Assembly (NCBI GenBank): GCA_964016885.1
Contig: OZ024746.1
Span: 48,732,001-48,796,000, forward strand
Reading direction: 5' to 3'
DNA: 64,000 nt
From: Eledone cirrhosa
Taxonomy: Eukaryota
The notes under the pieces are model-generated. The model was not told the origin of the DNA and made no database searches. It saw only the letters and a program-made list of their open reading frames with translations. This document shows, in pieces, positions 9,460 to 37,678 of this stretch (positions are counted from its first letter, which is position 1; the number at the start of each line of letters is the position of its first letter). The translations under genes and the position numbers were made by a program.

Positions 9460-9497
9460 CCTTTACCGGTTTCGCAGTTCTTCTGCTTTTCAAAAGG
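9460..9497 (-). ncRNA. Minimal type I hammerhead, UUGAAAA core
   Basis: Exact reverse complement of 9573-9610. Confidence 0.75.
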
Positions 9498-9572
9498 TGA
9501 GTTGAGATGGAGGGTCTGTGGTTTTTCTCACACCAGATGTGAGAAAAACCACAGACCCTCCATCTCAACTCA

Positions 9573-9610
9573 CCTTTTGAAAAGCAGAAGAACTGCGAAA
9601 CCGGTAAAGG
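9573..9610 (+). ncRNA. Minimal type I hammerhead, UUGAAAA core
   Basis: cctt TTGAAAA gcag-aagaa-ctgc GAAA ccgg TA aagg. Stem I is cctt/aagg, stem II gcag/ctgc, stem III the palindrome accggt, with a GUA cleavage triplet. Confidence 0.75.
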
Positions 9611-10204
9611 AACCAAATAAATATATATCTTTAAAAAATAAAAAAAAATAAGACTCCAGTTGCATTTTCGATTTCATCTCTTTTTCTTTATACTTTCACT
9701 CGTGTAGGACACCTGGTTATTTTTCATTTTGTAAAAAAAACCTCACTTTCTAATATATATATATATATATCTTTATCTCTCTATCTTCCCTCTCTCTACT
9801 TCTCTCTCTCTCTCCCTCTCTCTCTCTCTCTCTCTCTCTCTCTCTCTCTCTCTCTCTCTCTCTCTCTCTCTATATATATATATATATATATATATATATA
9901 TATATATATATATATATCTTTATCTCTCTATCTCCCCTCTCTCTACCTGTTTCTCTCTCTATCTCTCTCTTTCTATCTCCCCCCTCACTCTCTATTTCTC
10001 CCTCTCTCATTCATTAAATTGTAAGTATTTAACTGAAAAGTATTTGGTCGTAGAAATGCTTAGATAGAAGATATTACCTCAAGGTTACATCTTAGTTACT
10101 CTGAAGAATACGTGACTGTGAGGTTAAACAACACATTGATATTACCTATTCCTCTTTATCCCCCTTTGCAAATATCTTTAAATGTATTTCGTTTCTGAAT
10201 TTGT

Positions 10205-10371
10205 TTAGCAAGATTCTTTATCTGAAATCGTGTGTTGAAACCGATATTGTTATACTTTGGGAGGGTCATGTTGCCAATAAGAAACACACGCACCAGTTGC
10301 TTTCACTTGTGAAAGCAACTGGTGCGTGTGTTTCTTATTGGCAACATGACCCTCCCAAAGTATAACAATAT
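10205..10371. mobile_element. Foldback terminus of a family related to the Neptune-like PLE
   Basis: Perfect palindrome 10244-10306 / 10309-10371. tgaaatcgtgtgt.gaaac.gatattgttata.ttt.ggagggtcat is shared with 22753-22799. Confidence 0.8.
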
Positions 10372-10513
10372 TTAAATGTATTATTTCCGTCTTTCTCTCG
10401 TTTGTTTTTATTTATTATATGGAAACATAACTGACGTGATCTTACACACACTAGCACACAATCTCGCCCACATATGTGTACGTACATTTATACACACATA
10501 CATACAAAGTTTT

Positions 10514-11075
10514 GTATATATATATATATATATATATATATATATATATATATATATATATATATATATATATATATATATATATATATATATATATATA
10601 TATAATAATATATATATATATATATATATATATATATATATATATATATAATATATATATATATAATATATATATATATATATATAATATATATATATAT
10701 ACATATATATATATATAATATATATATATATATAATATATATATATATATATAATATATATATATATAATATATATATATATATATATGATATATATATA
10801 TATAATATATATATATATATATACATATATATATATATACATATATATATATATAATATATATATATATAATATATATATATATATACATATACATATAT
10901 ATATGTATATATATATATTTATATATATGTATATAGATATATGTATATGTATATATATGTATAAGTATATATATGTATATGTATATGTATATATATATAT
11001 ATTTTATATATATATATTTATATATATGTATATAGATATATGTATATATATATATATTTATATATATATATATGT
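10514..11075. repeat. Long (TA)n-derived microsatellite
   Basis: Directly visible; it is the source of the spurious YI-repeat ORFs. Confidence 0.95.
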
Positions 11076-11373
11076 GTAAATATAAATTAGCTAGAATCGT
11101 ATTTCGACTATTGGAAATTAGCGAAAAACAACTTCCGAGATGTGTGGCAAGCGCTCCATAAAAGCTAGAGAACTAGAGCAATAACATAAGTTAAAAAGCC
11201 AAACACACTGAGACGATGGTTAAACCATTATCCGCACAGCCATAGAAACGACCAAGTAATTCGGGTCAAACAAATAAAATATGATTGAAAATTATACCGG
11301 ACCCCTGGACGGTTGGTAATATTCAGTATTGGGTTTCTGCAACTCCTAAATCAAGTACTGTCTGCCTAGACAA

Positions 11374-11560
11374 ATAATTGTTTCTACGTTAGGCACAAGG
11401 CCGGCAATTATCCAGTGCATTACTGGTACTTTATGTTATCGACCCCGTAAAGATGAAAGGCAAAGTTAACCTTGGCGGGATTTGAACTCAGCATGGCAAG
11501 GGCCGTAACTTTAAACGTCAAAGCAAGGCGTCCGACCCTCTACCAATACTGCCAATCCAC
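11374..11560 (-). mobile_element. tRNA-derived SINE (family B)
   Basis: Reverse complement of the 42030-42216 type, including gggatttgaactcag and gatgaaaggcaaag. Confidence 0.85.
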
Positions 11561-34262: not shown

Positions 34263-34329
34263 GGTATATACATATACACACATACGTACACACTTACACA
34301 CATACATATACATATACATATATATATAT

Positions 34330-35577
34330 ATATGAATAAAGTGGTCCTTCATCACTGATCTTCCAATCATCATCGGTATTTCTTCGCTTTAAAGACCATA
34401 TACCACCGGTTGGTGCGAGCAACGGCTAAAGAAAGTCGTTGAGACATGTAAATAAAGGGAACAGCGAGAGTGTAAACAAACAAAGATGGTGAAGCAACGA
34501 AAAGTGAGGAAGAGCGAGTCAAGTCCAAAATTTCTATGAATATAAGTTCGGTGAAATCGTGAACGAGAGAGAATAAAGACCATCAAACCTGGTTGAAATG
34601 TGAGCAAGGAAGGAATTTCGCACAGGTCTAACGGGAGGAAGAAGGGGTCTAGTCTGTGAATTCGGTAAACATAAGTTCTGTGAAATCGTAGACGAGAGAG
34701 AGAGAAAAAAATGCCGACCGGCCTGGCTAAGCGTGCGAAAGAAAAGAATTACGCACAGGTCAAACGGGAAGAAGGAGGAGGAGGAGAGGTAGTAACAGAG
34801 AGTGAGTGAGTGAAGGGTGAGGAAGAGGCTAACAGAGAGAGTGACTGTTAGAGAGGGTAAAGATACAGAGAAAGAGGAAGCAGTAAGAACGAAATAGACG
34901 GATCACAGCGGGGGAAAGAAATATGTGTAAATATGAGAATAAACGTGCTGCGGAGTTGCAAATGGGTTACATATGAATAAAGTGGTCCTTCATCAGTGAT
35001 GTTCCAACCATCATTGGTATTTCTTCGCTTTAAAGACCATATACCTCCGGTTTGGCGAGCAACGGCTAAAGAAAGTCATTGGGACATGTAAATAAAGGGA
35101 ACAGCGAGAGTGTAAACAAACAAAGATGGTGAAGCAACGAAAAGTGAGGAAGAGCGAGTCAAGTCCAAAAATTTCTATGAATATAAGTTCGGTGAAATCG
35201 TGAACGAGAGAGAATAAAGACCATCAAACCTGGTTGAAATGTGAGCAAGGAAGGAATTTCGCACAGGTCTAACGGGAGGAAGAAGGGGTCTAGTCTGTGA
35301 ATTCAGTAAACATAAGTTCTGTGAAATCGTAGACGAGAGAGAGAAAAAAATGCCGACCGGCCTGGCTAAGCGTGCGAAAGAAAAGAATTACGCACAGGTC
35401 AAACGGGAAGAAGGAGAAGGAGGAGAGGTAGTAACAGAGAGTGAGTGAGTGAAGGGTGAGGAAGAGGCTAACAGAGAGAGTGACTGTTAGAGAGGGTAAA
35501 GATACAGAGAAAGAGGAAGCAGTAAGAACGAAATAGACGGGTCACAGCGGGGGGAAAAAATATGTGTAAATACGAGA
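34330..35577. repeat. Tandem duplication of a ~641-bp unit (about 1.95 copies)
   Basis: atatgaataaagtggtccttcatca starts at ~34330 and 34971. Each unit contains an older ~130-bp internal duplication; flanked by (TA)n. Confidence 0.9.
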
Positions 35578-36400
35578 TATATATATATATATACATATAT
35601 ATATATATATATATATATATAAACACACCCACACACATACATACATACACCTACATATACACACATACACACATATATACATACATACACACATACACAT
35701 GTGCACACATACATACATACACATACATATATATATATATATATATATATATATATATATATATACATATATATATATATATATATATATATGTATATAT
35801 GTGTGTATATATGTGTGTATATATATATATATGTGTATATGTGTGTATATGTGTGTATATGTATGTGTGTGTGTATATATGTGTATATCTGTATGTATAT
35901 AAACTAGCAGTTTAGGTATGATACATTTTATTACTAATTATATCTAAATGTTTCTTCTCTCTTCATAATGTAATTTTAACTCTGAAACTGGTTCAGTCTG
36001 GTTCAACCGGATTGGTCTGTCCCAGTCATTCATTGAGGAATATCGGTGAGGTTTGCACCCTTAACTCGCGGTTGGGTGTGGATGCATTCATGTATATGTG
36101 TGTGTCCGCATGTATCTGTGTGTTTCTAAATATATTGTTAATAACTCCCTCTGGTTGAGTAATCTTTGAAGTGTGGTGACTGCTGGAAAGCTGCCATTAC
36201 TCATACTTCTCGCCTCCCTCACCACCTCTTCTACGGCTTCGATATAAATACCCCTCCGCCTCTGTGGTATTTTCTTCGGGGTTATAAGAAGCTTAGCTCT
36301 GTTTTTCGACCGTTGTATCGCGTGACTATCTCCCCCTCCGCCTTTTGGGATTCTTTCTCACGTCGTATGGACGCGTTCTTGAGACTAGTAAAATGAGGTA

Positions 36401-36490
36401 TCCTCTTGATAAGTCGGCAGACCTCGCAGGGACTCTATATCTTTATGATGTATTGTTTTTGTTTATGCCACGAAACTACGTAGTCGAGGA
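36401..36490 (+). ncRNA. Type I hammerhead, UUGAUAA core (unit 1)
   Basis: tcctc TTGATAA gt(c)ggca...tgccac GAAA ctacgtag TC gagga; predicted cut after 36485. Confidence 0.8.
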
Positions 36491-36995
36491 ATCTAGGAGC
36501 AGTTTAGGTATGATACATTTTATTACTAATTATATCTAAATGTTTCTTCTCTCTTCATAATGTAATTTTAACTCTGATACTGGTTCAGTCTGGTTCAACC
36601 GGATTGGTCTGTCCCAGTCATTCATTGAGCAACATCGGTGAGGTTGGCACCCTTAACTCACGGTTGGGTGTGGATGCATTCATGTATATGTGTGTGTCCG
36701 CATGTATCTGTGTGTTTCTAAATATATTGTTAATAACTCCCTCTGGTTGAGTAATCTTTGAAGTGTGGTGACTGCTGGAAAGCTGCCATTACTCATACTT
36801 CTCGCCTCCCTCACCACCTCTTCTACGGCTCTGATATAAATACCCCCTCCGCCTCTGTGGTATTTTCTTCGGGGTTATAAGAGGCTTAGCTCTGTTTCTC
36901 GACCGTTGTATCGCGTGACTATCCCCCCCCCCCCGCCTTTTGGGATTCTTTCTCACGTCGTATGGACGCGTTCTTGAGACTAGTAAAATGAGGTA

Positions 36996-37085
36996 TCCTC
37001 TTGATAAGTCGGCAGACCTCGCAGGGACTCTATATCTTTATGATGTATTGTTTTTGTTTATGCCACGAAACTACGTAGTCGAGGA
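36996..37085 (+). ncRNA. Type I hammerhead, UUGAUAA core (unit 2)
   Basis: Same sequence as unit 1; predicted cut after 37080. Confidence 0.8.
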
Positions 37086-37588
37086 ATCTAGGAGCAGTTT
37101 AGGTATGATACATTTTATTACTAATTATATCTAAATGTTTCTTCTCTCTTCATAATGTAATTTTAACTCTGATACTGGTTCAGTTTGGTTCAACCGGATT
37201 GGTCTGTCCCAGTCATTCATTGAGCAACATCGGTGAGGTTGGCACCCTTAACTCACGGTTGGGTGTGGATGCATTCATGTATATGTGTGTGTCCGCATGT
37301 ATCTGTGTGTTTCTAAATATATTGTTAATAACTCCCTCTGGTTGAGTAATCTTTGAAGTGTGGTGACTGCTGGAAAGCTGCCATTACTCATACTTCTCGC
37401 CTCCCTCACCACCTCTTCTACGGCTTCGATATAAATACCCCCTCCGCCTCTGTGGTATTTTCTTCGGGGTTATAAGAGGCTTAGCTCTGTTTCTCGACCG
37501 TTGTATCGCGTGACTATCTCCCCCTCCGCCTTTTGGGATTCTTTCTCACGTCGTATGGACGCGTTCTTGAGACTAGTAAAATGAGGTA

Positions 37589-37678
37589 TCCTCTTGATAA
37601 GTCGGCAGACCTCGCAGGGACTCTATATCTTTATGATGTATTGTTTTTGTTTATGCCACGAAACTACGTAGTCGAGGA
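37589..37678 (+). ncRNA. Type I hammerhead, UUGAUAA core (unit 3)
   Basis: Same sequence as unit 1; predicted cut after 37673. Confidence 0.8.

Follow-up and report, generated by a model that had tools for sequence, protein, structure and literature searches.

The U3-A8 hammerheads of the window

The window analyzed here is a 64,000-nucleotide stretch of the Eledone cirrhosa genome (assembly GCA_964016885.1, contig OZ024746.1, positions 48,732,001 to 48,796,000, forward strand). It contains three families of mobile elements, A, B and C, whose type I hammerhead motifs have U and A at core positions 3 and 8 (U3-A8) instead of C and G (C3-G8). Judged from their coding sequences, families A and B are putative Penelope-like elements (PLEs) with a reverse transcriptase (RT) and a GIY-YIG endonuclease, while family C is a tandem array without an open reading frame (ORF). 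The features concerned are listed below.

6193..6230, plus strand: family A hammerhead, decayed, UUGAAAA core, in the 5'-truncated 3' end of a putative Neptune-type element (6154-6319)
9460..9497, minus strand: family A hammerhead, UUGAAAA core, stems I and II of 4 bp, palindromic 6-nt stem III, GUA site, H17 at 9464
9573..9610, plus strand: family A hammerhead, forming the right arm (9532-9693) of an inverted pair, H17 at 9606
11803..11896, minus strand: family B hammerhead, UUGAGAA core, stem I of 5 bp, long stem II, stem III of 6-7 bp, GUC site, H17 at 11808
13032..14738, minus strand: 5'-truncated putative Hydra-clade RT-GIY-YIG frame, 568 amino acids (aa) from stop to stop; element body 11705-14679
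15363..15456, plus strand: family B hammerhead in an inverted 3'-end copy (14675-15471), H17 at 15451, followed by (TA)n
20870..20907, minus strand: family A hammerhead in a 400-bp 3' fragment (20794-21193), H17 at 20874
35906..37752, plus strand: family C array of three head-to-tail 595-bp units and a 67-bp tail, no PLE ORF, (TA)n end
36401..36490, plus strand: family C hammerhead 1, UUGAUAA core, long stem II, 10-nt palindromic stem III, GUC site, H17 at 36485
36996..37085, plus strand: family C hammerhead 2, H17 at 37080
37589..37678, plus strand: family C hammerhead 3, H17 at 37673

Both strands of positions 1-43000 were scanned with a descriptor for type I hammerheads that leaves positions 3 and 8 free. 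The scan returned 11 folds, including 8 with U3-A8, 3 with C3-G8 and none with a mixed core, and 40 dinucleotide shuffles gave 2 matches in total, neither of which was U3-A8 or C3-G8. The 8 U3-A8 folds start at 9460, 9573, 11803, 15363, 20870, 36401, 36996, and 37589. The original prediction, made from the letters of the window, had described nine complete type I folds. Eight of them have the type I architecture (three stems round the core, stem I open) at exactly the predicted coordinates, while the ninth, at 6193, is a decayed copy in which the first stem II pair is A.C, stem I is down to 3 bp, the descriptor fails and an alternative fold is preferred. The core residues U4 G5 A6 N7, A9 and G12 A13 A14, the A15.1-U16.1 pair and an NUH triplet are all present, the triplet being GUA in family A and GUC in families B and C, and the Watson-Crick pair between positions 3 and 8 that belongs to a type I hammerhead is formed as U3-A8. 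The bare heptamer TTGANAA occurs at chance level (59 seen against 65 expected), so the evidence lies in the whole fold and not in the heptamer. Shuffle-based folding z-scores of the U3-A8 motifs were unremarkable (0.5 to -1.6) and were left out of the evidence. A C3-C8 match at 23759 lies antisense to an ORF and was taken for a chance hit.

The Rfam hammerhead models (E<=1) matched none of the nine named copies but matched both copies of a canonical family of the window, family D. This agrees with the prediction that CUGANGA-based searches would miss the U3-A8 motifs, although the canonical hammerhead of family E was missed as well.

Elements carrying the motifs

In the window, family A is represented by short 3' ends that match a full element elsewhere in the genome (locus L091) at 92-95% identity. 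This element has a stop-free RT-GIY-YIG frame of 770 aa, followed after about 1.04 kb by the hammerhead in the same orientation. The 9460..9497 motif forms the left arm of an inverted pair of such element ends (9356-9532). The family A protein has the motifs GLKF and DKG, a CX4CxxC linker (CGRSNCGTC), a CCHH finger (CKGC and two His) and, at the C terminus, a GIY-YIG domain. These motifs place the carrier among the Neptune-type PLEs, a label to be read with the reservation that the linker finger also occurs in Nematis. A second copy (locus L092) has an upstream ORF1, and a second ORF presumably fits Neptune. The nearest relatives of the protein are 75% and 66% identical, and its sole animal-named homologue is a fragment from Octopus bimaculoides (74%).

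The family B hammerhead at 11803..11896 lies about 1.14 kb past the stop of the 13032-14738 frame on the same strand, and thus one motif is attached to an RT-GIY-YIG ORF, as had been predicted. The frame corresponds to residues 241-784 of a full-length copy (locus L093) at 99% identity. Full-length tandem copies also exist, with a unit of 3,543 bp, whereas Hydra elements are generally under 3 kb; family B is flanked by (TA)n. The protein contains RWR at 103, DKT at 183, a CxCX5C linker (CNCPDRSIC), CxxC (CNLC) and CxH (CKH), and has neither G.K[FY] nor CCHH. In the full-length copy YRDD is found at residue 414 and YIG at 672, which places the endonuclease C-terminal to the RT. The available text of Craig et al. 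(2021, PMC8557442) gives as marks of the Hydra clade an RWK-type motif, no GxKF/Y, DKT, CxCX5C, CxxC, CxH, no CCHH and a C-terminal endonuclease, and describes Naiads as having an N-terminal endonuclease, a DKA motif and a CCHH finger, without canonical hammerheads. The ORF had been called Naiad-like. This identity was ruled out by the C-terminal endonuclease, by DKT in place of DKA, by the lack of CCHH and by the complete hammerhead, and motifs and domain order instead assign the frame to the Hydra clade; the RT tree described below was built from genome and metagenome relatives only. The nearest relatives of family B are 54% and 50% identical. Pfam gave nothing on the Hydra ORFs of the window, its sole match being a weak RVT_1 on the ORF at 22.7 kb.

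Family C has a monomer of 591-595 bp with one hammerhead per unit, present as 3 units in the window and 8 in locus L094. Inverted arms are frequent among its copies. Of 7 copies inspected, 4 terminate in (TA)n roughly 100 bp beyond the motif. No PLE ORF linked to family C was found in 30 loci and 3 longer stretches. Monomers of retrozymes without long terminal repeats (non-LTR retrozymes) range from about 170 to 400 bp. The family C monomer is outside this range, and the family is therefore filed as retrozyme-like only, as a non-autonomous passenger. An assembly artefact is ruled out, since contigs from other public runs also contain family C with its core.

Two further U3-A8 families were found elsewhere in the genome. 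Family G, from a random sample, is an ORF-less head-to-tail tandem of about 320 bp; as for family C, no autonomous partner was found within the loci examined. A search pattern in which some outer pairs were fixed and positions 3, 8 and the inner stem pairs were free gave 2,665 matches against 4 in controls. A8 was present in 99 of the first 100 listed, and U3 in every copy read (20 loci and L103). The fifth, family H, lies behind a different Hydra ORF, which in the C-terminal part shares about 36% identity with B. Its hammerhead (L257:600-2400, minus strand) was missed by the strict descriptor; stem I there consists of 2 bp, a 2x2 internal loop and then 3 further pairs, a build that in canonical hammerheads permits loop contacts. 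One more U3-A8 motif, at L256, was excluded from the counts, as its stem I could not be closed.

Genome-wide abundance and signs of selection

Exact patterns with N at positions 3 and 8 gave at least 7,053 copies of family A, 2,192 of family B and 6,068 of family C, with no matches for reversed-pattern controls, and the first 100 matches listed for each family were all U3-A8. Non-U3 copies were few (18, 13 and 13 for A, B and C); the flanks of the patterns used for them differ slightly from those of the family counts, and subfamilies with other stems are missed. All of these copies still had A8 and none was C3-G8. A family-free core pattern with a short stem II was counted over the whole genome, where U3-A8 reached 24,386 (control 532) and C3-G8 13,169 (control 84), against 339 for U3-G8 (control 241) and 454 for C3-A8 (control 134). 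The mixed-core matches listed consisted of background and of scattered single mutants of both kinds of family, some of them locally duplicated. The predicted coupling of the two core changes is thus borne out by the count of U3-A8 against single changes. In a random sample of 39 evenly chosen stretches (389,600 bases), 18 folds were found, 12 with C3-G8 and 6 with U3-A8, with no mixed cores; 10 shuffles gave 5 matches, none of them compensated. The C3-G8 families outnumber the U3-A8 families and are amplifying in the same genome.

The stems of family G vary around a constant core. In an alignment of 22 copies (21 distinct), 94.6% of cells were paired, compared with 18-47% in slid controls, and 6 of 14 pairs, located in stems I, II and III, changed on both sides, while U3-A8 was invariant in all 21 distinct rows. 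The cleavage triplet and the palindromic stem III are conserved too. The motifs are tied to PLEs, as had been suggested, and this covariation makes them look selected. They are best read as selected, probably active ribozymes of a known variant.

Origin of the swap

Behind each of four other Hydra ORFs of the genome, one of them in the window, there is a C3-G8 hammerhead. Outside the genome, 77 Hydra-related metagenome loci were scanned with the same descriptor as elsewhere, and a sense-strand C3-G8 motif was found in 31 and U3-A8 in none; the remaining 46, many of them short contigs, had no compensated motif. Among 17 Neptune-type outside loci, C3-G8 was found in 6 and U3-A8 in none, and in both sets motif and ORF are linked by proximity only. 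Similarly, all 26 Hydra motif rows (25 families) in the available part of File S2 of PMC8557442 are CUGANGA. The core type was mapped onto a quick IQ-TREE phylogeny of 50 RT proteins, comprising 36 from outside loci with a motif (one of 37 was dropped because its frame was below 300 aa), 9 from this genome and 5 homologues. Families A and B fell on opposite sides of the deepest split (100/100), each beside C3-G8 relatives, which forces two core changes on the tree. In addition, the 3' regions of A, B and C showed no similarity to one another (blastn, word 7, E<=0.01), and the three families differ in position 7, stem lengths, stem III and triplet. The U3-A8 swap thus probably had at least two origins, or one origin and one transfer. 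The single PLE-associated lineage that had been proposed does not fit a distribution across the deepest RT split. The three families had also been called unrelated, which holds for A and B; C has no ORF by which to place it, and its stem II build resembles that of B.

Two loci have hammerheads with other cores. A metagenome contig (L175:2765, minus strand) carries a complete-looking G3-C8 hammerhead with a 5-bp stem I, a stable stem II and a Hydra-like stem III, belonging to a neighboring element, and a single-copy Hydra-like hammerhead at L181:2542 (minus strand) has U3-G8, the expected wobble intermediate. Animal PLE contigs, several of them with their hammerheads, lie inside bacterial assemblies and are annotated as bacterial proteins (L237-L253; P0132, P0158, P0160, P0181), likely through host contamination.

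Proposed function and alternative explanations

Taken together, we consider it fairly probable that these are published U3-A8 type I motifs placed at the 3' ends of Neptune-type and Hydra PLEs and in an ORF-less tandem, where they would cut the element RNA after GUA or GUC, and that the swap was gained more than once. On the sense strand, the motifs follow the ORFs at a distance of about 1.0-1.1 kb. Transcription reading through tandem copies may yield an RNA that is cut to unit length and that the element RT would copy back into (TA)n sites, with family C borrowing the machinery of autonomous elements. The form of cleavage may differ between families. The family B fold is the minimum-energy fold (-22.7 kcal/mol) and would act as a monomer. 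The family C fold lies 1.1 kcal/mol above the minimum, and two copies co-fold into a double hammerhead, so that either form is conceivable. The family A monomer fold is unfavourable (+0.7 against a minimum of -6.4 kcal/mol); with a palindromic stem III of 2 bp it would need a dimer, and two copies pair through the palindrome in co-folding. These results for A and C match the published model, in which PLE hammerheads with a palindromic stem III cleave as dimers and process tandem transcripts (PMC4209133, in the available text; a 2019 review). The swap itself may have arisen by C3 to U and G8 to A. Both are transitions towards A+T, which makes this the easiest compensated route, and masters with a mismatched 3-8 pair would not have been amplified. 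CpG decay was discounted as a route to A8, because these families have A, G or U at position 7 and not C.

Several observations weigh against this interpretation. The covariation was measured on family G alone, where kinship between rows can inflate the shuffle test. The genome-wide counts are of copies and not of independent events, with family A dominating the U3-A8 total. The average similarity among copies is 96-99% in A, B and C, so that their low variation reflects youth and is no proof of selection. The RT tree is a quick one with long branches flagged. It supports no more than two origins, since C and G lack an ORF by which to place them and B and H fall in an open fork, so that a single origin within Hydra is conceivable. 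According to the available text of PMC4209133, PLE hammerheads cut weakly in vitro, even as dimers, and an assay of that study's own U3-A8 form is not described there. Finally, behind the ORF of a third PLE type in the window (22734-25669; ORF 22734-25133, an 800-aa frame with DKS, a CX4CxxC linker and a long tree branch), and behind related ORF ends at 9 other loci, the descriptors found no hammerhead, which indicates that PLEs can spread here without one.

The hammerhead might have arisen once as U3-A8 and moved between co-resident families by template switching or 3'-end recombination, the stems diverging later. All U3-A8 families found belong to one genome (none was seen in 77 Hydra-related or 17 Neptune-type loci elsewhere), elements accumulate in shared (TA)n tracts, the long stem II begins in both B and C with 2 bp and a bulge, and the available text of PMC8557442 raises the possibility that hammerheads were acquired independently or are parasitic on PLEs. 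We consider this scenario unlikely, given that the 3' regions of A, B and C are dissimilar, that position 7, stems and triplet all differ, and that B is closer in build to the C3-G8 Hydra families E and F than to A. An about equally unlikely explanation is that the folds are kept as structures, for example as an RT recognition signal, and cut slowly or not at all. It would suit the unfavourable monomer fold of family A and the weak in vitro cleavage of metazoan PLE hammerheads, for which the authors left non-cleavage roles open in the part available (PMC4209133). However, the 3-8 pair forms in the active fold (PMC3088659, in the available text), the pairing and not the letters is conserved, and the cleavage triplet and palindromic stem III are conserved as well.

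It seems improbable to us that unrelated retroelement families of this genome converged on U3-A8 repeatedly, as often as five times and in two deep Penelope clades, and made it the most frequent short-stem core because it is favoured by the host cell; if true, the genome would be a natural side-by-side test of the 3-8 pair in ribozyme kinetics and Penelope retrotransposition. That host preference made unrelated families converge by selection and not by mutation bias is in our view slightly less probable still. Such a preference would account for the excess of U3-A8 over C3-G8 among short-stem-II cores (24,386 to 13,169) and for its presence in five families (A, B, C, G, H) from two clades or more, when none of 25 published Hydra families and none of 37 outside loci with compensated cores has it. 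The excess, however, is mostly due to one family, the 389,600 random bases contain 12 C3-G8 folds against 6 U3-A8, and C3-G8 families are more numerous and amplify alongside. In addition, Schistosoma has the same core mix (PMC4209133, available text), and 46 of the 77 outside Hydra loci, many of them short contigs, lack a compensated motif altogether. Chance or an assembly artefact, which the chance-level heptamer alone might suggest, is almost certainly wrong, being refuted by the shuffle and reversed-pattern controls and by the occurrence of family C in other public runs.

Canonical neighbors and other elements of the window

The original prediction was silent on the canonical C3-G8 hammerheads in the same window, which start at 38026, 38345, 39669, and about 32558 (the last with G-U pairs). 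They belong to the following features.

28807..31023, plus strand: family F, second putative Hydra-clade ORF, 738-aa open frame, 40% identical to B; element 25778-32760
32558..32624, plus strand: canonical C3-G8 hammerhead of family F, 1.5 kb past the end of its ORF, with G-U pairs in stem I
38026..38389: family D, inverted pair of canonical CUGAUGA hammerheads (38026-38070 minus, 38345-38389 plus)
39669..39751, minus strand: family E canonical CUGACGA hammerhead, long stem II, 87% similar to a Hydra element's 3' end in locus L092

Family F also has an inverted truncated copy at 27337-27830, and its canonical hammerhead lies within its repeats. Family D is abundant and retrozyme-like, and forms long arrays of 466-469 bp units elsewhere in the genome (e.g., some 30 of them at C1:5.74 Mb). 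A further retrozyme-like tandem with a canonical hammerhead is found at L132:6165-7877, where the units measure 311 bp and there is an inverted arm. The 3' end of the third PLE type has conserved small hairpins near 25510-25550. The region 42950-64000 is a 45-bp satellite with at least 463 copies. Its unit is a multiple of three, and the 4,720-codon open frame at 43010-57172 is likely a by-product of the repeat.

Significance and comparison with known systems

The U3-A8 swap itself is a known variant, and the main value of the finding is therefore practical and comparative. A census restricted to CUGANGA would miss from a third (random sample) to two thirds (short-stem pattern) of the hammerheads of this genome. 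The new elements are the presence of U3-A8 in Hydra-clade elements and ORF-less tandems, in at least five families with likely at least two origins, and in tens of thousands of copies. U3-A8 is absent for Hydra-clade elements from the one table that covers them (PMC8557442 File S2, in its available part), and no report of it in Hydra elements or retrozymes was found in the literature searched, where coverage of subscription papers is thin. U3-A8 and C3-G8 families of one clade that amplify side by side are matched natural constructs for the role of hammerheads in PLEs, and one of these is predicted to fold as a monomer.

Several rare natural U3-A8 hammerheads have been reported as active in vitro in earlier work (Perreault et al., 2011, PMC3088659, available text). 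They have the same compensated pair and are not tied to PLEs there. The rarity implied by the original prediction does not extend to PLEs, since a U3-A8 descriptor gave about 1,300 Schistosoma motifs in Cercyon elements (Cervera and de la Pena, 2014, PMC4209133). In the available text, the Cercyon PLEs of Schistosoma mansoni resemble the present elements in having type I motifs in a pseudo-LTR, U3-A8, thousands of mostly solitary copies and a palindromic stem III. However, Cercyon motifs have almost no stem III and a stem II of 7-8 bp, whereas stem II is 4 bp and the palindrome 6 nt long in family A, and family B combines a complete stem III with a long stem II; the swap here also extends over two PLE clades and ORF-less tandems. 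The Hydra PLEs of Craig et al. (2021) share with family B the protein motifs, the C-terminal endonuclease, (TA)n targets and a 3' hammerhead. Their motifs, as given in the available part of PMC8557442, are CUGANGA with short stems II, in contrast to U3-A8 in B and H and to the 54-nt stem II region and 3.5-kb unit of B. Families C and G, with ORF-less head-to-tail units and one type I hammerhead per unit, are like non-LTR retrozymes (PMC7229834, available text), which have been proposed to derive from PLE pseudo-LTRs (Li et al., 2026, bioRxiv 10.64898/2026.07.22.740005, in the part available). Family C, known here from DNA alone, differs from them in its U3-A8 core and in its 591-595 bp monomer, compared with the typical retrozyme monomer of about 300 bp.

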